Origin: Acidobacteriota bacterium
GTDB taxonomy: Bacteria; Acidobacteriota; Holophagae; Acanthopleuribacterales; Acanthopleuribacteraceae
Length of the DNA stretch: 64,000 nt
Assembly (NCBI GenBank): GCA_002747255.1
Contig: PDUC01000036.1
Span: 16,732-80,731 of the forward strand
Reading direction: 5' to 3'
Positions 10,358-18,985 of this stretch are shown here, piece by piece. Each line of letters starts with the position of its first letter. The first letter of the stretch is position 1. Under the pieces are notes generated by a model, which was not told where the DNA came from, did no database searches, and saw only the letters and a list, made by a program, of their open reading frames with translations. Both the position numbers and the translations under genes were made by a program.

Positions 10358-10373
10358 TGCAATCAACGTGCCA
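10358..10373 (-). promoter_or_regulatory. sigma-54 (-24/-12) promoter for the 8151..10238 gene
   Basis: The minus strand reads TGGCAC-GTTGA-TTGCA, a perfect match to TGGCAC-N5-TTGCW. It implies a 5' UTR of about 100 nt. Confidence 0.75.
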
Positions 10374-10569: not shown

Positions 10570-11841
10570 ATGAAGCAGTTTATCTTTTTCTCCATTCTCT
10601 TGACAGGGCATATTTTATTTGCGCAAACAGATGAAACCATATTTAGAGAGTTTCGCTTTGACTTCACCACACCTGGCGCTCGAGCCAACGCCCTTGGAAA
10701 AGCTTTTGTTGGCCTATCCGATGAGGCCACCTCAGCCTACAACAACCCCGCTGGCCTATCCGTCCTGGAACACCCTGAAATCACCCTGGAGTATCAATCC
10801 AACAAGATCCAATATGCTTTTCTTCAAAACACTGATTCATTTGAGCTTATCAATGGTGATATTCTCCACCCTGAAATCCATACCAATCGCTGCAGTTTTG
10901 CCTCCATAAGCTTTAGTAAGTATAACACTAACTTTTCCCTTTTTTACGTCAATCAGCTTCAGTATTCACGTGAACTGCCCGAGGAGATAAGCACCTGGTA
11001 TCATATCGATATTGGTTACAACTTCTTTTATGGCAACCAGCATCGGGTTCAACTCGATATTTCCACTTACGGGCTCAGCTTTGGTCGTGCTTTTTCCCGG
11101 CTTTCTTTTGGTGCCGCCATTGGCCTCTCACAGCTCGATATACGTTATAAATACAGTACGCGGCTCATATCATACGACCTTGAGCTCGACCAGCTAGTTT
11201 TAAGTGAAACCAACCACAATCTTTCGGAATTTTCCTGTGTTTTAGGCATGACGTACCAAATTCATCCAAAAATAAGAATTGGAGCATCTTATAAGAGCCT
11301 TCCATCTTACAAATACAGTGAAAAGGTTCAAACACTGCAGGATCCTGAATATCATTCCGTGCCGATCCGATTTAAAGTTCCCGATTCGCTTGCTATCGGT
11401 TTGAGTTGTCTGCCAACAGACAGGATCACCATTGTGCTGGATTTTAACAGAATATGGTATCACCAGTTAGCCGGTGACAACTTCACCGTTATCTCCGGTG
11501 ATGAATACACCAAAGAAAATTACATCACTCCCGATGCGACTGAAAAACACATTGGCATTGAGTACCTTCTCCCCTGGCGCAAGCACATCTTTGCATTCCG
11601 TTGCGGGGCTTATGAAAATCCCGACCACAAAACGCGCTTCACGGCCTCAACATCTACGTTCGCTTCAGACATACAGGCCTTCGTCTTTAACACTGGCAGC
11701 CAGAAAACCATGACGGCCTACACTATCGGGCTGGGATATGTCTGGAAGAACAAACTGCAAACAGATATGGCATTGGTACATGAAGGAGATCAATTTCACT
11801 CCTTCATCACCTCTTTCTTATACAGATTTGGGAAAAAATGA
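10570..11841 (+). CDS. outer-membrane beta-barrel protein (FadL/PorV-like family)
   Basis: Signal peptide MKQFIFFSILLTGHILFAQT. The N-terminal motif GARANALGKAFVGLSDEATSAYNNPAGLS is characteristic of FadL/PorV-type barrels. The rest of the protein shows alternating amphipathic strands. Confidence 0.7.
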   Translation: MKQFIFFSILLTGHILFAQTDETIFREFRFDFTTPGARANALGKAFVGLSDEATSAYNNPAGLSVLEHPEITLEYQSNKIQYAFLQNTDSFELINGDILHPEIHTNRCSFASISFSKYNTNFSLFYVNQLQYSRELPEEISTWYHIDIGYNFFYGNQHRVQLDISTYGLSFGRAFSRLSFGAAIGLSQLDIRYKYSTRLISYDLELDQLVLSETNHNLSEFSCVLGMTYQIHPKIRIGASYKSLPSYKYSEKVQTLQDPEYHSVPIRFKVPDSLAIGLSCLPTDRITIVLDFNRIWYHQLAGDNFTVISGDEYTKENYITPDATEKHIGIEYLLPWRKHIFAFRCGAYENPDHKTRFTASTSTFASDIQAFVFNTGSQKTMTAYTIGLGYVWKNKLQTDMALVHEGDQFHSFITSFLYRFGKK

Positions 11842-13997
11842 TGAAGAACAGCAAGTTCATTGGCATCCTCTTGGTTCTTTTTCTGTTGTCTCACATCTTT
11901 TTGCTGGCAGATGACCGTTTTTTAGACAGCTATAAAAAAGGTTGTGAAGCCATGAACATGCAGGAATACAGCCAGGCCATTGCGTACTTTGAAAGCGCAA
12001 TAGCTGAGGAACCAGTATCATCCAACAAGGTGAGAGACTACGGTGTGCAGTTTGTCTCCTATCATCCCTACACTTACTTAGTTGAAGCCTATCTCATGTG
12101 GCAGGGACCTGACCACCTGGAAAAGGCACGACAGTATGCCGATTTGGCTGTTCGCTACAAAGAAGACGACCCCGAAAAGTTCCAAGAATTAAAAGCCAAA
12201 GTAACCCGCCTCAGGAGAATCGTCGACTCACAAATTCAGGCCAACACCCAGCAGGAAAAACCCAGCATTCCGTTAGATACTGTCAACCTGCTTATATCTC
12301 AAGGCCAGTTTCATGAAGCGCTGGACCAAATCAATCTCCTCATACACTCTTTTCCGGATGAAGCCATTCTTAAAAGCACCAAGCACCTTCTCAGGGAACT
12401 GATCCTCAAAACAACTACCGCTGAGAAATCTGAACAGGCACATAAAAAGAACCTTGACGAGTTTTTACTCAAAGCGAGGCAAAGCATTTCAGTTGACAAT
12501 CAGGAAACAGCTTATTTGTACTATTTATATGTAGACGTTCTCGATCCGGGCAACGAAGAAGCTGCTTTGTTTATTGAAAAGTTCAAGCAGAACCTTGCCG
12601 ATCAGGGAAAAACCCAGGAAGAAATCGCCTTGGAGTTAACCTCCTACAAAACAGAAAATCAGGATCTTCTCAATAGGTTGACTGAACTGGCGGATAAAAA
12701 TAAAAAGATTAGAAATGAGCTTGAAGTCCTTCAAAATCAGATGTCACAGATGGAATCTGCAACTCAGCCCGTCACGCCCCAAGTTGAAGTTACCTGGGAC
12801 CCCAAACCAGTCAAAGATGAAGAAAGAGAATATCATTTGAGCGCCACTATCAACAGTAACATTCCCATCGAGAGTGTTAAATTCTTCAGCAATGGCGTGC
12901 TGATTAAAACATGGGAAAATATTGGCAAGTCTCATTTCAAAATGCCCACTATTCAGAATTTCAGTTTTCTCAACTACCAGAACCGGCTGCGCCTGGAAAT
13001 AAGAGATATCAGGGGGAATATACACAACGATGAAATTCCATTAAACATCCCTCAGTCTACCAACAAATTCTTCCAGCACTTCCCGAAAGCATTTGTAGTT
13101 TTTGTTCTATTTACTGTTTCCTACGTTTATATGTCGAGACAACGCAAGAAAAGACAGGCTTTCAGGGAGCGGTTCAACCCCTATGTAGCGGGTGCACCTG
13201 TCTTTTCAAGCTCCATGTTTTATGGAAGACACGACCTTTTGAAACAAATATTAAACACTCTGCATAATAATTCCATGATGATCTGCGGTGAACGAAGGAT
13301 AGGTAAAACGACTTTGATGCATCGCCTGCATTCGGTGCTTCCGGCTTTGGATGATCCAGAGTATCAGTTCTATCCCGTCATGATTGACTTACAGGGGATG
13401 GTAGAAGAGGATTTTTTCGCCAGTATGGACCACGAAATCATTGACTCACTGGCAGAAACAGGTATCAAGCTGCCAGAATACTGGGAAGGCACCATGAATG
13501 TTCGTGTTTTCACCAAGCGAATACGACAGATCATCAGTGAACTCAAGTCCCATTCCGATCGTTCACCAAAACTCGTGCTCTTGTTGGATGAAGTCGATAT
13601 TATGAACAGCTTTTCTGAAAAGACCAACCAGCAGTTGCGTTCCGTTTTCATGAAGGGGTTTGCTAAACATCTAGTAGCTGTTATGGCAGGCATTCACTTA
13701 AAGAAGCGATGGGACAGTGAGGGGAGCCCATGGTACAACTTCTTTGAGCAGATAGAATTGCAGCCATTTACTAACAGACACGCCAAAGCTTTGATCGAAA
13801 ACCCGGTTAAGGGTATTTACAGCTACAGCGACGAGGCTGAAGATCGCATACTGGAGTTAAGCAACCTAAAACCCTACGTTATTCAACGTCTTTGCGTCAA
13901 TCTCATTGCAACTATTCTGTCTGAAAACAGGCGCCGTGTGACTCGCAAGGATGTCGATCGTGTTTTTGAGTCCATCCAGAAGGAGAAAGAGCAATGA
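11838..13997 (+). CDS. bitopic membrane protein: periplasmic TPR + coiled coil + beta domain, one TM, cytoplasmic P-loop ATPase (Arch_ATPase/ATPase_2-like)
   Basis: ATGA overlap with the OMP gene. N-terminal anchor FIGILLVLFLLSHIFLLA and a TPR-like segment YSQAIAYFESAIAEEP. A long heptad-rich segment is followed by a TM, FPKAFVVFVLFTVSYVYMS (about nt 13081-13140), and then RQRKKRQ. NPYVAGAPV...FYGR...GERRIGKTTL is Walker A (nt 13287-13313) and LVLLLDEVD is Walker B. Confidence 0.75.
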   Translation: MMKNSKFIGILLVLFLLSHIFLLADDRFLDSYKKGCEAMNMQEYSQAIAYFESAIAEEPVSSNKVRDYGVQFVSYHPYTYLVEAYLMWQGPDHLEKARQYADLAVRYKEDDPEKFQELKAKVTRLRRIVDSQIQANTQQEKPSIPLDTVNLLISQGQFHEALDQINLLIHSFPDEAILKSTKHLLRELILKTTTAEKSEQAHKKNLDEFLLKARQSISVDNQETAYLYYLYVDVLDPGNEEAALFIEKFKQNLADQGKTQEEIALELTSYKTENQDLLNRLTELADKNKKIRNELEVLQNQMSQMESATQPVTPQVEVTWDPKPVKDEEREYHLSATINSNIPIESVKFFSNGVLIKTWENIGKSHFKMPTIQNFSFLNYQNRLRLEIRDIRGNIHNDEIPLNIPQSTNKFFQHFPKAFVVFVLFTVSYVYMSRQRKKRQAFRERFNPYVAGAPVFSSSMFYGRHDLLKQILNTLHNNSMMICGERRIGKTTLMHRLHSVLPALDDPEYQFYPVMIDLQGMVEEDFFASMDHEIIDSLAETGIKLPEYWEGTMNVRVFTKRIRQIISELKSHSDRSPKLVLLLDEVDIMNSFSEKTNQQLRSVFMKGFAKHLVAVMAGIHLKKRWDSEGSPWYNFFEQIELQPFTNRHAKALIENPVKGIYSYSDEAEDRILELSNLKPYVIQRLCVNLIATILSENRRRVTRKDVDRVFESIQKEKEQ

Positions 13998-15418
13998 GGA
14001 ATCCCTTTTCTGCAGGAAGCTGGGTATCCGGTAAGGGCTTTATCGGCCGGGAAGAAATCATGCAGCGGCTCATCTATTCAAATGAAAATTGTGATTGGGT
14101 ACAGGCACAGCGGAGAATGGGAAAAACCTCCTTACTCAGACAGCTGGAAGAAAAAATCAACAAAGGACAGATCGAATCCGCGTCCATCAGGACCACTTTG
14201 GCCGTGTTTTGGGATATCCAGGGAAGTTATGACGCCAGCGGACTCCTTGAAAGTCTTGAGGACGCGCTGGACGACAGTTACGATCTGTTCCCCCAATCAT
14301 GGCATGACATGGACCCCTCGGATTTTCAGGCCGATCACCCCCATCAGACCATAAAAAATCTCACCAGACAGCTTAGAAAAAAAGCTATGGGCTTAACACT
14401 TCTCATCGATGAAGCGGAAGAGTTGATGACCTTGAATGAAAAAAATCCTGAAACTCTGGCACGACTGAGAAAAGTGTTTCACACCTCATCCAACATTCAT
14501 ACGATCATTTGTTCCACTCCACGTCTTGAAAACTTGAGACAACATCAAGCTATTGAAACATCGCCCTTTCTCCACGGATTTCAGGTCCACTACTTGAGTA
14601 CATTCAATAGAAAAGAAACACAGCAATTACTCGATATGGGTAATATCCCAGCCGATATCGGAGAAAGGATATACCAGCTCACACACGGTAATCCCTATCA
14701 AATACAATTATTTGCAAAGTACTTTTTTGAGAACAGAGATTTCGAGGAAACAAGCTTGTTCATGCAAAGCAATCCGTCTCTTTCCCAGGTACACGATGTC
14801 AACCTCGGCTTGCTCACCGAAAGAGAGCAAGAGATCCTATCAAAGTTCACCATGGATCACCTTCAATCACCCCCGTCAGAAAGTAACCAGTTGATCTTTA
14901 AGAAACTCATTAGATTGGGTTACTTATCGGGAAATGAAAAATCCCCCAGCATTGCATCGGATCTTTTCCACAAATGGCTAAAGCGGTATTTCAGTCAAAA
15001 TCTCAACCTTCATCCAAAAGACCTGAAGGACATGCCACTCAGCGAAGCAAGCAGCAAGATAGTTCGTGAGAACATTCTCAATTTGTACCAGTATCTGCTG
15101 CAAAAAATGCAACAGGGATACCGGCTGAATGTCCATGCGGGACACTTCAACGTATCCAGCATGGATAAAAAAGCCTATCCCACTCATGAAGCCTCTGAGC
15201 AGAAAGCAATAGCTCCCAACTTGAATACCCCTCTCTGGTCTCTGGCACTACAAGATCTCATCATTCTCACTCAGGAATTATTTGATTTCAAGAAACACTG
15301 GTCCTGCTTCCGCTTGATGGAATTAGCAAATAATCTGGGCAACACTACAGAAGAAGAAATTCTTGATCTTATGAATCTGATTAGAGAAGAAGCCCGGCTG
15401 GAATCGGAAAAGATCTGA
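13994..15418 (+). CDS. soluble P-loop ATPase of the same (Arch_ATPase/STAND-like) type with a helical C-terminal region
   Basis: ATGA overlap with the upstream gene. NPFSAGSWVSGKGFIGRE...AQRRMGKTSLLRQL is Walker A (nt 14104-14130) and LTLLIDEAEEL is Walker B. No TM segment is present. Confidence 0.7.
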   Translation: MRNPFSAGSWVSGKGFIGREEIMQRLIYSNENCDWVQAQRRMGKTSLLRQLEEKINKGQIESASIRTTLAVFWDIQGSYDASGLLESLEDALDDSYDLFPQSWHDMDPSDFQADHPHQTIKNLTRQLRKKAMGLTLLIDEAEELMTLNEKNPETLARLRKVFHTSSNIHTIICSTPRLENLRQHQAIETSPFLHGFQVHYLSTFNRKETQQLLDMGNIPADIGERIYQLTHGNPYQIQLFAKYFFENRDFEETSLFMQSNPSLSQVHDVNLGLLTEREQEILSKFTMDHLQSPPSESNQLIFKKLIRLGYLSGNEKSPSIASDLFHKWLKRYFSQNLNLHPKDLKDMPLSEASSKIVRENILNLYQYLLQKMQQGYRLNVHAGHFNVSSMDKKAYPTHEASEQKAIAPNLNTPLWSLALQDLIILTQELFDFKKHWSCFRLMELANNLGNTTEEEILDLMNLIREEARLESEKI

Positions 15419-15525: not shown

Positions 15526-17007
15526 TTACTCTGTTTCCTCTAATTTGACATTTTGAATGGGTAGGGAAATGAGAGCGATATCGGAATCATTTTTACCAAG
15601 CATGGTTGATGTGAAGGAACCCTCGATGCTGCTGATCACAAAATAAAAAGTCTTTGCGGTATCTTCTTTAAACAGGTCTGCCAAAGCAGTTTCATCAATA
15701 GACCAGGCTTCAGAAGGACTTAATTCTCTTTTGTTGTAACCTGCGACCCTTCCATCTTCAGCCAGGATAGACAATCGAACAACGATGGGCGTTTTCTCTG
15801 TATTTTGAATGTACAGAGTTCTGCTGACCATGCTCTGACCTGTCAGCCAGAAGCTGGAGTAGTTGCCTGCCTGTTGAATATTCACAGCGCCCAAGGAAGA
15901 CCTGTTATCGGTGGCATAATGAAGACCGTGGACAGTGTATTCTGCCAGTTGTTCCTGGTCTTCAAGTTCTTCGTCCACTTCAGGAAGGATAATTTGAAAT
16001 TGAATTCTCAAAGGAATTTTTCCATCAGTTGCGTAAATCTCATTAAACCAGGTTGAACCAACAACACCAGAGATTCTTGTATTTGGAGGAAGCTTTAGTT
16101 CAATAGAATCCTCTTTGACATCAAAGCCACTCTCATCATCTCCGCTGAGAAACATCTCGGTATAGACCAGGGTGAGATTCATGTGAATTTCATGGTTGTG
16201 AGGGTTGGTAAATGTCGCCCAATGACTTGTATTTTCCATAAATGGCAGAAGCGGCAGGGATCCATTTTGTAAAACCTTGGTATTCAACTCAAAGGCACAA
16301 GTCTGTTTGGATTCGTCTACCTTTGAAAAGGTTTGATAGCCCACCAGTTGAAACTCTGGATTCTGACACAGAACCTCGCCCCAAAAAGCCGCAACAGGGT
16401 TATCCAAATCTCCCAGGAACACATCGAAGTACGGTGTTTTTTTCAAAAAGCCGGCGTGATTCAAACCCGACCACAATTCGGTTTCCTGCGGAAGCCCGTC
16501 CACGTCATAAAATCTGAAATCCAAATTGGATTGCATGGAATCACCGATCCCCACAACGGAGAAACTCGATTTCCAGGTGAAGTAATTGGTTCCTATTTGC
16601 GGAATGACCACTCGATTGCCGTGATTCAAGTGAAGCGAAACGCCGTTTAATTGGCCCGTCTCTGTGTTGTGGATCCACATGAAACCTTCCAGTGGCACAT
16701 CTGACCGGAAGATGAGCGACTGCACCGCCGCAAGTGATTCCCTGTGATCGAAAGGAGAGAAAGAAAAACCGCCACTTCCATTGATGATTACATCGTCGAA
16801 TTTGACTATTTCCCTGCCAAGGAAACTGTAACCTCTGATGTCTATTCGATGTTCACCTTCACCCTGAACGCCCGCTTCGATGAGGTATTGCCATTCCCCG
16901 CTAAATGTTTTCTCTGGCAAAGGTACAAAGCTGATGTACTCGGGACTATCATCTGTAAGTCCTGCCATACCTAACAATAAAACTAATAATAGTAACGTTT
17001 TTTTCAT
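15526..17007 (-). CDS. 493-aa secreted protein, no known domain, shares beta-sandwich-like modules with the 5248 and 8151 proteins
   Basis: The ORF track gives 15526..17064. I prefer the ATG at 17007 (MKKTLLLLVLLLGMAGL is a signal peptide), because a -24/-12 promoter lies at 17046-17061 inside the longer ORF. Confidence 0.75.
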   Translation of the reverse strand: MKKTLLLLVLLLGMAGLTDDSPEYISFVPLPEKTFSGEWQYLIEAGVQGEGEHRIDIRGYSFLGREIVKFDDVIINGSGGFSFSPFDHRESLAAVQSLIFRSDVPLEGFMWIHNTETGQLNGVSLHLNHGNRVVIPQIGTNYFTWKSSFSVVGIGDSMQSNLDFRFYDVDGLPQETELWSGLNHAGFLKKTPYFDVFLGDLDNPVAAFWGEVLCQNPEFQLVGYQTFSKVDESKQTCAFELNTKVLQNGSLPLLPFMENTSHWATFTNPHNHEIHMNLTLVYTEMFLSGDDESGFDVKEDSIELKLPPNTRISGVVGSTWFNEIYATDGKIPLRIQFQIILPEVDEELEDQEQLAEYTVHGLHYATDNRSSLGAVNIQQAGNYSSFWLTGQSMVSRTLYIQNTEKTPIVVRLSILAEDGRVAGYNKRELSPSEAWSIDETALADLFKEDTAKTFYFVISSIEGSFTSTMLGKNDSDIALISLPIQNVKLEETE

Positions 17008-17045: not shown

Positions 17046-17061
17046 AGCAATATGCTTGCCA
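17046..17061 (-). promoter_or_regulatory. sigma-54 (-24/-12) promoter for the 15526..17007 gene
   Basis: The minus strand reads TGGCAA-GCATA-TTGCT with canonical GG/GC spacing. It lies about 39 nt upstream of the ATG at 17007. Confidence 0.7.
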
Positions 17062-17301
17062 CAACTGCCAGAGACAACTTCAACGCGACCCTAACCCTTG
17101 TTTACAAACAACTTAAAGAGCACGCTCACCCAAGACTCATGTCTTTTCTCGTTCAACAATTCATACTCTTTTACACAACCATTCTTGAACCCTTTATTTC
17201 ATAAACAGCTTTTTCAAGATATGGAGTGATTTAAGATCCCTACATCAACATATTGTGTGGGTAACTTGCCTTTTCAATGAATAAACACGCTCGCAAGATG
17301 C

Positions 17302-17347: not shown

Positions 17348-18985
17348 TCAGGACTTCAGGCCTGTGCGATCGAGCATTTTGTAGAGCATGGTGCGATTGA
17401 TACCCGACTGCTTTGAGGCTTCGGGAATGGAGTTCCCGCATTCCCGCATCAGGTTGACCAGGAACTTGCGTTCAAGTTCAGATTGGATTGTTTTAGCCTG
17501 TTCGAGAATGTCATGTTTGACACGCTTCAACTCGTCATTTGTTCGCGGCAGCTCCGTTAGAGAGTCCAGATAGGTACTGAGAGAATCTCCGTTAATTCCA
17601 TGTTTCTCCGGCAAGGGCACTTCATCGGTATACAGGACGGGCTTTGATTCGAGTTCAAAGTCTGAGAACTGGTCCATCAAGCTCTCGGGAAAATGGTTTC
17701 GCGTTATTTTCTTGCCCTGACTCTGAATGAGCAGGTTCTGGATCAGGTTCTCGAGCTCTCTGATGTTTCCGGGAAATGAATAAGCATACAAAATATCGTA
17801 AACCCGAGAAGACACCTCGGGAACTTTCATTTTGAACTGCTTTGCATATCGCCTCAAGAAAAACTGGAACAGAGGCAAAATATCGCCTGGTCGTTCCTTG
17901 AGAGAGTGAATTTTAAAAGGTAGAACGGATAGTCGGAAATAGAGATCATCTCTAAAATTTTGTTCTTCCACAGCCTTTTTTAAATCTCTGTTAGTGGCGG
18001 CGATAATTCGGACATCGACCGATATTTTCTCCTTTCCACCCACCCGATGAAACTCTTTAAGCTGTAGAAACCTGAGAAGCTTAGCTTGAACCTTTAAATC
18101 CATTTCCCCAATTTCATCGAGGAAAAGAGTGCCATTGTGGGCTCGTTCCACCTTCCCGACATGCCTTTGAACGGCTCCGGTAAAAGCTCCCCGCTCATGC
18201 CCAAACAGTTCGCTCTCAATTAAGCCCTCAGGAATAGCGGCACAATTCACCGCCACAAAGTCATTCTTCTTTCTGGGACTGTGATTGTGAATGTAATTGG
18301 CCAGCACTTCTTTTCCTGTTCCGCTCTCCCCTTCCAGGAGGACTGTCACATCAGTAGGAGCGGCCTTCTTCAGGCTCTGCAAAAGTTTGAGTGACAATTC
18401 ATCCGTGGCCACCAATTCTGAGAAGTTCACTATGGGTTTCTTGAACAATTGAAAAGGCGCAACCATTCTAGAAAACACATTGGCAACCAGTTTAACGAAT
18501 AAGTTGCCATGGGAACCGGATTTGGGTCTGCCCGCTAAAATAAGCCTCAGCTCGCTCATGGCAAAGAAGAGATAAAAGGTCTGATTTAAGAATTCTGCCT
18601 TTCCATACTTGCCGTTCTCGAGCCAGTCTATCGGTGCGTTTTCCAGTTCAACCACCTGTTCTGGAACCAGGGTACCCTGCAAAACCCGCCAGGAGTTGGT
18701 TGTCTCTCTGTAGATACAGTGCTTGAGGTTGAAGGCGCTTTGCTGGTGAATAACCCAATCAAAAAAGCCTTTAATTGATTTGACATCCAGCAGCATGCCC
18801 AGGGAAAAGATATCGACTCCGGCCTCAGCCGAGGACTGATTGGAAACGGCTTTCTGGAAAAACCCCAGTTGAGATTTCATAATCTGAGCTCTTTGGCGAA
18901 TTTGATTCAAGTCCTCTTCCAAAGACAGCAGATTCAGATTTTCTTCGTAGTTTTCAAAAAAGAGTTGAATACCGTGGTCAGTCAT
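17348..18985 (-). CDS. sigma-54-dependent transcriptional activator (bacterial enhancer-binding protein), no receiver domain
   Basis: AAA+ core motifs: [11 protein letters not shown] (Walker A), [15 protein letters not shown] (GAFTGA loop) and [10 protein letters not shown] Fis-type HTH lies at the C-terminus. The N-terminal ~200 aa has no phospho-acceptor pattern and may be GAF-like. Confidence 0.9.

Follow-up and report, generated by a model that had tools for sequence, protein, structure and literature searches.

What might an operon do that encodes an outer-membrane barrel, an ATPase anchored in the inner membrane and a second, soluble ATPase? The question is raised by three plus-strand genes, here named g1, g2 and g3 (Table 1), in a 64-kb window of Acidobacteriota DNA (the whole stretch of 64,000 nucleotides that was analysed, from contig PDUC01000036.1 of assembly GCA_002747255.1). 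From their predicted domains, their relatives in other genomes and the genes around them, g2 and g3 probably form a two-protein transmembrane signalling device, with the FadL-type barrel g1 as an accessory. An earlier note on this DNA, made from the sequence alone, had put a trans-envelope machine with a dedicated outer-membrane barrel first and a transmembrane signalling STAND-like pair second. It also stated that no characterised system of this composition was known, and our literature searches likewise found no description of the three-gene system.

The open reading frame (ORF) listing and the sequence bore out the three genes and their ATGA stop/start overlaps, which lie at 11838-11841 (g1/g2) and 13994-13997 (g2/g3). 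The start of g2 has tandem ATGs, and the NCBI start is one codon downstream, at 11841, giving a product of 718 aa. The NCBI locus tags at this place are CR997_07960 and CR997_07965, from a metagenome-assembled genome (MAG) named 'Acidobacteria bacterium', and the closest cultured relatives having the locus are Acanthopleuribacter pedis and Sulfidibacter corallicola (Holophagae lineage).

Predicted architecture of the two ATPases

The AlphaFold2 (AF2) model of g2, built from 62 homologues (mean pLDDT 88), contains in order a hydrophobic helix (residues 3-23), a TPR-like helical domain (27-306), an Ig-like beta-sandwich (316-403), a transmembrane (TM) helix (410-445) and a P-loop domain (about 460-719). 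Among 61 homologues sharing the RFNPY motif, 59 had a TM segment, all 61 had at least three K/R residues after the TM position, and none had a further hydrophobic segment. Signal-peptidase sites of the type AxA followed by D or Q were present in many g2 homologues, directly ahead of a conserved WYEHY motif. Because the modelled domain order, the family-wide conservation of the TM segment with its positive-inside flank and the signal-peptidase sites agree, mature g2 is a predicted type I bitopic protein, with a periplasmic ectodomain, a single TM helix and a cytoplasmic nucleoside triphosphatase (NTPase). This is the topology that the earlier note had proposed. The 'long coiled coil' that it placed in the periplasm was modelled instead as long helices within a helical solenoid, together with the helix at about 260-306, and a coiled coil is possible.

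The TPR-like domain has a conserved hairpin, VRxYG...Y.PY (62-78), and long helices at 176-218 and 260-306. The sandwich gave a short and weak match to Y_Y_Y (20 columns, 41% probability). A PDB sequence search with the g2 profile returned generic TPR proteins only, and the periplasmic domain alone, used as query in a word-indexed search, recovered the same family plus generic TPR proteins and no alternative cytoplasmic outputs. On the cytoplasmic side, g2 carries RFNPYVAGAPV, the invariant GSPWYNFF, a Walker A motif GERRIGKT (G489-K490-T491, at 13302-13310), a Walker B motif LLLDEVD (D584-E585, at 13587-13592) and a GxP-like KPYVIQ; both Walker motifs, RFNPY[IV]AGAPV and GSPWYNFF were invariant or nearly so across the homologues. 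Foldseek placed this domain among AAA+ proteins, with Orc1/Cdc6 as the best match of low root-mean-square deviation, followed by RFC.

In Foldseek comparisons the TM-plus-AAA+ layout of g2 also superficially resembles that of Rpt subunits and FtsH. This likeness is one of the points in favour of a trans-envelope machine, in which the cytoplasmic ATPases would supply the energy for exporting the flanking secreted proteins, inserting them or assembling them at the surface, by way of the g2 stalk and the barrel. Against it, g2 has a single TM helix and no channel-forming part.

The g3 product was modelled with higher confidence values (pLDDT 94, pTM 0.89), with a helical domain and a winged-helix-like region behind its nucleotide-binding domain (NBD) and an alpha/beta domain in addition. 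Its top structural matches were the Arch_ATPases PAB2304 (2qen, E 2.2e-12, target-normalised TM-score 0.61) and SSO1545 (2fna, E 2.1e-10), and further neighbours included Avs3, ORC/Cdc6, CED-4, Apaf-1 and NLRs; the model aligns with CED-4, Apaf-1 and Cdc6 over 380-420 columns. A PDB sequence search with g3 returned nothing. The Walker A motif of g3 (G43-K44-T45) lies at 14120-14128, one nucleotide downstream of the interval 14119-14127 given earlier, whereas the interval given for g2 was correct; the Walker B motif (D139-E140) is at 14408-14413, and the protein has a GxP-like GNPYQIQ. Both Walker motifs are intact in g2 as well as in g3. Aligned by hhalign, the g2 ATPase domain and g3 matched with 99.7% probability (E 3e-26, 234 columns), so that at the level of sequence profiles the g2 cytoplasmic domain and the g3 N-terminal module are clearly paralogues, as had been suspected.

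The tripartite nucleotide-binding oligomerisation domain of STAND proteins (NBD, helical domain and winged helix) is complete in the g3 model, and g2 stops after the helical lid. The repeat sensor and the effector typical of STAND proteins are present across the system as a whole, the former as the TPR-like domain of g2 and the latter as Pkinase, Trans_reg_C and extracytoplasmic function (ECF) sigma domains on g3 relatives. Precomputed matches to PF01637 were common among homologues, and relatives with Reg_prop-type ectodomains reached 33.1-40.9 bits. In the window proteins, no NACHT, NB-ARC or nSTAND1-6 profile scored above its threshold.

Weak matches to nSTAND1, nSTAND6 and NACHT, together with Avs3, CED-4 and NLRs among the structural neighbours of g3, could be read as signs that g2 and g3 are the sensor NTPases of a STAND/Avs-type system for phage defence or conflict. 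PADLOC added weak partial matches to PDC-S27 and PDC-S01 (E 1e-4 and 1e-3), confined to the Walker A/P-loop region, and its families matched nothing outside that region. Nuclease, TIR, protease and pore effector domains are absent, the outputs fused to relatives are regulators, the sensor would be periplasmic, where phage proteins are not expected, and synteny beside ruvAB on the chromosome is stable in relatives at about 40% identity. An anti-phage function is therefore hardly credible.

Identity of the barrel

The earlier description of g1 as a FadL/PorV-like barrel held for its first half. Taken alone, the window protein scored below threshold against Toluene_X (PF03349; 24.1 bits, threshold 29.7); the family was matched by 21/21 g1 orthologues (best E 1.5e-17). 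The profile of these 21 orthologues matched the structures of FadL, TodX, TbuX and CymD with E-values of 1e-11 to 1e-12, some of them over most of the chain, and with 3dwo included the matches ranged from 3e-12 to 9e-7. The orthologue alignment supports a signal-peptide cleavage site between LFA and QTD, a terminal aromatic motif (LYRF/IYSF) and a hatch motif with invariant P35, A37, R38, G43, N59, P60 and G62 (...NPAGL). By these profile matches g1 is a predicted FadL-family outer-membrane barrel. Profile scans of g1-g3 found no Plug, TonB_dep_Rec or FecR matches.

Assignment of g1 to PorV or PorQ was rejected, with 39 bits against a curated NCBIfam cut-off of 90 for PorV_fam and 38 against 220 for PorQ. 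The similarity is confined to an N-terminal motif of 40-70 residues. The presence of this motif would suit a trans-envelope machine, but a score so far below the cut-off speaks against one.

The g2-g3 pair and the frequency of the barrel

Relatives were scanned in one genome per species, which yielded 250 genomes with a TPR-type g2 relative, and 80 loci were kept; the g3 partners fell into short (345-aa type), window-type (465-aa, mid-length) and long classes. Of the 68 loci that offered room of at least 1.2 kb, 62 had a g3-like gene immediately downstream of g2, and two others had one close by. In L091 a g3-like gene directly follows a receptor with a different ectodomain, one of the large TM-ATPase relatives described below. 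In addition, a protein of 1874 aa (P0387) joins a signal peptide, Reg_prop, Y_Y_Y, a TM segment, a g2-type ATPase and a g3-type NBD, helical domain and winged-helix domain in one natural chain, which is Rosetta-stone evidence that both ATPases work together. The P0387 chain continues for 200 aa beyond the g3-type module, with another hydrophobic segment.

The barrel was less constant. Of the 49 loci with 4 kb or more of sequence on either side, 22 had a FadL gene no further than 4 kb away, with a frequency that differed strongly by partner type: 15/18 for long partners, 6/9 for the window type and 1/21 for short partners, a class typified by Vicinamibacteria. The FadL-linked modules came from Acidobacteriota, KSB1, Calditrichota and Gammaproteobacteria MAGs, often with translational coupling. 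Three window-type loci (L006 from Acanthopleuribacter, L007 from Sulfidibacter, and L014) lack the barrel with all other synteny kept. Since it is missing from these and from nearly all short-partner loci, the barrel is not essential to the core; and as the partner is near-constant where the barrel drops out, g2-g3 is the nearly invariant unit and the barrel a frequent accessory across several phyla. Of the co-occurrence that the earlier note had wished to see checked, the g2-g3 part stood and the three-gene set including the barrel proved not to be universal. Its machine with a dedicated barrel fared badly on the same counts, all the more as the three barrel-less relatives retain the secreted proteins.

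That the barrel is missing from roughly half the loci, three close relatives among them, and that its gene is found 2-4 kb off or on the other strand in several loci (L004, L054, L061 and L084), is what would be expected if the barrel were an independent nutrient-uptake channel that merely shares the operon, the functional unit being g2-g3 only. However, the adjacency recurs across phyla and across g3 outputs, usually at 20 nt or less upstream and on the same strand, and its frequency beside mid-length or long partners (21/27) is far above the ~2% expected by a rough estimate from a handful of FadL genes per 5-Mb genome. In the window, moreover, the g1/g2 stop/start overlap implies co-translation. 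We regard an independent channel as rather unlikely, and the barrel as an accessory of the signalling pair.

Outputs and ectodomains in relatives

Among 28 partner proteins from diverse loci, Pkinase was found in 17, Trans_reg_C (an OmpR-type winged helix-turn-helix, wHTH) in five, an ECF sigma factor in two and MarR in one, and a separate search for g3 homologues recovered the same output fusions. An FHA-GAF histidine kinase lies directly upstream of the module in L004. The C-terminal domain of the window g3 occupies the place that the kinase domains, and presumably the wHTH and sigma domains, take in relatives.

The receptor side varies as well. An exhaustive search with the g2 profile gave 870 clusters at 50% identity (E <= 1e-30), and many strong matches were to long proteins (1000-1870 aa) that share with g2 just the TM-ATPase part, located at their C-terminus. 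Such relatives with other ectodomains matched with E-values of 1e-105 to 1e-117. Eight of them were examined, of which seven carried Reg_prop and Y_Y_Y (one also Laminin_G) and one FG-GAP, each with a signal peptide ahead of the ectodomain and a TM segment behind it. In hybrid two-component systems the periplasmic sensor is classically built from Reg_prop plus Y_Y_Y. Swappable ectodomains on one subunit and swappable regulatory outputs on the other argue for a signalling system rather than a transport machine, and thus favour the second of the two readings in the earlier note. Partners with kinase, sigma and wHTH outputs and receptors with sensor ectodomains make a trans-envelope machine very unlikely.

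A subtype with actin and amidase genes

A different arrangement was found in 36 of the 80 loci, mostly from Vicinamibacteria, where genes for an Amidase_2 protein and a volactin-family actin homologue (PF25216) come before g2 and a short g3 without an output domain in one operon. The volactin-family matches had E-values of 1e-78 to 1e-84 (example loci L035:6595-12581, L038, L048, L066, L073 and L088), all four genes share a strand except in two of the 36 loci, and loci of this kind almost never have the FadL gene as well. It would seem from this that cell-wall or cytoskeletal proteins, too, can serve as partners of these two ATPases. An association of bacterial volactin homologues with a pair of membrane ATPases seems to be previously undescribed.

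The operon could accordingly be taken to mean that the pair is an envelope or cytoskeleton organiser, a membrane scaffold linking the periplasm or cell wall to filaments in the manner of RodZ/MreB, with regulation secondary. The actin homologue and the amidase are, however, absent beside the FadL-associated types, including the window, and those types bear signalling outputs on g3; the actin association could itself be a signalling output. As an account of the pair in general, the organiser seems quite unlikely.

Flanking genes and sigma-54 elements

The operon lies among three conserved secreted proteins, a sigma-54 enhancer-binding protein (EBP) and ruvB-ruvA, with synteny kept at ~40% identity. 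The position among secreted proteins would fit a trans-envelope machine that handles them; their conservation is limited to the Holophagae-type clade of the window (12-13 loci), which counts against that role. A repeated domain common to the three was considered and rejected, BLASTP giving no significant pairwise similarity. The TTG start at 17064 of the 512-aa ORF is probably over-extended, and its signal peptide MKKTLLLL starts at the ATG at 17007.

The perfect sigma-54 element TGGCACGTTGATTGCA sits in the divergent intergenic region that the 695-aa gene shares with g1, and a second element, TGGCAAGCATATTGCT, has one mismatch. The 695-aa orthologues of L009-L012 have equivalent elements ahead of them; in L007 and L014 such elements are near starts that are probably over-extended. 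A sigma-54 promoter ahead of g1-g2-g3, which would make the module itself a target of the EBP, was looked for and not found in the window or in KSB1 loci, and scans of the operon for sigma-70 promoters and terminators stayed at chance level. The whole 64-kb window contained no tRNA genes and no Rfam families at gathering threshold.

The EBP is syntenic with the module in the window clade. Its N-terminal domain of 190 aa is without a Pfam match, shows no signature of a receiver, GAF or PAS domain, and is conserved within the clade (invariant LFF, RA and W). EBPs also flank KSB1 and Calditrichia modules. Orthology of the window-clade EBP with the GAF-EBPs of KSB1 modules was rejected, the N-terminal domains being unrelated (hhalign probability 0.1%). 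From its position the EBP is a candidate downstream partner of the module, and the EBP with its sigma-54 targets would be a plausible output, although the link is weak.

Table 1. Coordinates of the predicted features of the module and its flanking genes in the window
Feature	Position	Strand	Remarks
g1, FadL/TodX-family outer-membrane beta-barrel, 423 aa	10570-11841	+	signal peptide; hatch motif PGARANALGKAFVGLSDEATSAYNNPAGL; C-terminal LYRF
g2, type I bitopic receptor NTPase, 719 aa	11838-13997	+	start overlaps g1 stop
g2 signal peptide, residues 1-25	11838-11912	+	cleavage between ...FLLA and DD; homologues with AxA sites before D/Q
g2 periplasmic TPR-like helical domain, residues 27-306	11916-12755	+	AF2 model, alignment
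g2 juxtamembrane Ig-like beta-sandwich, residues 316-403	12783-13046	+	AF2 model
g2 TM helix, residues 410-445	13065-13172	+	hydrophobic core about 415-436, then SRQRKKRQ
g2 cytoplasmic domain	13173-13994	+	P-loop core and helical lid, without winged helix
g3, soluble paralogous NTPase, 474 aa	13994-15418	+	start overlaps g2 stop
g3 NBD-helical-winged-helix module, residues 1-335	13994-14998	+	AF2, Foldseek
g3 C-terminal alpha/beta domain, residues 340-474	15011-15415	+	specific to the window clade; without family match
Secreted protein, 811 aa	5248-7683	-	signal peptide; short TGase_elicitor match at residues 83-131
Secreted protein, 695 aa	8151-10238	-	signal peptide; without family match
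Secreted protein, 512 aa	15526-17064	-	signal peptide; without family match
Sigma-54 (-24/-12) promoter, perfect	10358-10373	-	135 nt upstream of the 695-aa gene
Sigma-54 element, one mismatch	17046-17061	-	54 nt upstream of ATG 17007 of the 512-aa gene
Sigma-54 EBP	17348-18985	-	syntenic with the module in the window clade

Comparison with known systems

Sensor-helper pairs of STAND/NLR proteins (NAIP-NLRC4, plant NLRs) and bacterial STAND regulators (MalT, AfsR, PknK-type) resemble the module in the NBD, helical and winged-helix domains of g3, the GxP-like motif, the TPR-type sensor, the effector domains fused to the NTPase in relatives and the division of sensing and output between two paralogous NTPases. 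They differ in that the g2 sensor is periplasmic, with a TM helix between sensor and NTPase, that the sensor-bearing g2 has neither winged helix nor effector, and that profile scores are sub-threshold and the oligomer is a prediction here. The Arch_ATPases PAB2304 and SSO1545 share with the module the N-terminal NP[FY]..G..V...F.GR and the Walker motifs, besides being the best structural matches of g3. They are soluble, stand-alone proteins, whereas g2 is membrane-anchored and the window proteins fall below the Pfam threshold.

In layout, g2 resembles the hybrid two-component system receptors of Bacteroides (Reg_prop and Y_Y_Y), which have the same signal peptide, large ectodomain, Ig-like domain, single TM segment and transmitter; TM-ATPase relatives of g2 bear exactly the Reg_prop and Y_Y_Y ectodomain, and in both cases the receptor gene adjoins an outer-membrane uptake gene. 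The transmitter of g2 is a P-loop NTPase, however, not HisKA/HATPase, and the window ectodomain is TPR-like. FecA-FecR-FecI offers a similar set of an outer-membrane protein, a bitopic inner-membrane regulator and a cytoplasmic factor, and some g3 relatives carry an ECF sigma domain; the module lacks a TonB-dependent transducer, a FecR domain and a regulated-proteolysis signature, and its barrel is FadL-type and optional. TodX and TbuX are FadL-family channels of aromatic-hydrocarbon catabolic clusters. The g1 product belongs to their family by profile, but unlike in those clusters, catabolic genes are not adjacent.

Proposed mechanism and points against it

If g2 and g3 form a signalling device, a cleaved signal peptide would put the TPR-like and Ig-like ectodomain of g2 in the periplasm, and the TM helix would link it to a cytoplasmic Arch_ATPase/STAND-like module without an output domain of its own. 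The g3 protein would be the cytoplasmic transducer that carries the output, in other lineages a domain of Ser/Thr kinase, OmpR-type DNA-binding or ECF sigma type and here the novel C-terminal domain. A periplasmic cue at the ectodomain may alter the nucleotide or oligomeric state of the g2 ATPase, which would then nucleate or release g3 through the paralogous NTPase interfaces and so switch on its output. From the analogy of STAND/NLR sensor-helper pairs and of ORC/Cdc6 hetero-oligomers we infer that g2 and g3 would hetero-oligomerise in a nucleotide-dependent manner. The barrel most likely admits a hydrophobic ligand that g2 would sense, a role proposed because of the parallel with TodX and with the SusC-type importers beside Reg_prop/Y_Y_Y sensors; alternatively, it may contact the TPR domain directly. 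In the window clade, the output is likely, if more speculatively, to pass through the adjacent EBP to the flanking sigma-54-dependent genes for secreted proteins and to act on their transcription.

Several observations weigh against this proposal. All of it is computational, and the ligand, the interaction and the output in the window clade are predictions. The window g2 and g3 scored 22.4 and 26.5 bits against Pfam ATPase_2 (PF01637), below the gathering threshold of 33.2, and the STAND profiles were sub-threshold too (nSTAND6 20.4/27.7, nSTAND1 17.5/27.1 and NACHT 14-19.5/26.7 bits). The C-terminal domain of g3 has no recognisable function in the window clade. As for the EBP, the GAF input domains in KSB1 modules show no homology with the N-terminal domain that the protein has in the window clade, and an EBP is lacking altogether in several module loci. 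As described above, 3/9 window-type loci and nearly all short-partner loci do without the barrel, and a structural or morphogenetic role would suit the 36 volactin/amidase loci no less well than signalling.

Significance of the module

On a broader and more tentative reading, to which we give less credence than to signalling by the pair itself, g2 and g3 would represent an unrecognised and widespread signalling class, in which an NTPase transmitter hetero-oligomerises with a paralogous helper that bears interchangeable outputs (Ser/Thr kinase, ECF sigma, wHTH and possibly an actin-like filament), often wired through a FadL barrel to an imported hydrophobic cue. The family is not rare, with its 870 clusters and with 250 species-level genomes having the TPR-type receptor. 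If the proposal is true, it would describe a different receptor design, its transmitter being a nucleotide-driven switch ATPase by which a second, paralogous ATPase with the output is recruited. The Arch_ATPase (PF01637) fold, long an orphan, would then have a function, and NLR sensor-helper pairs would have a membrane-spanning counterpart in bacteria. The repeated association with FadL channels suggests a way in which hydrophobic molecules may be sensed across the Gram-negative envelope.

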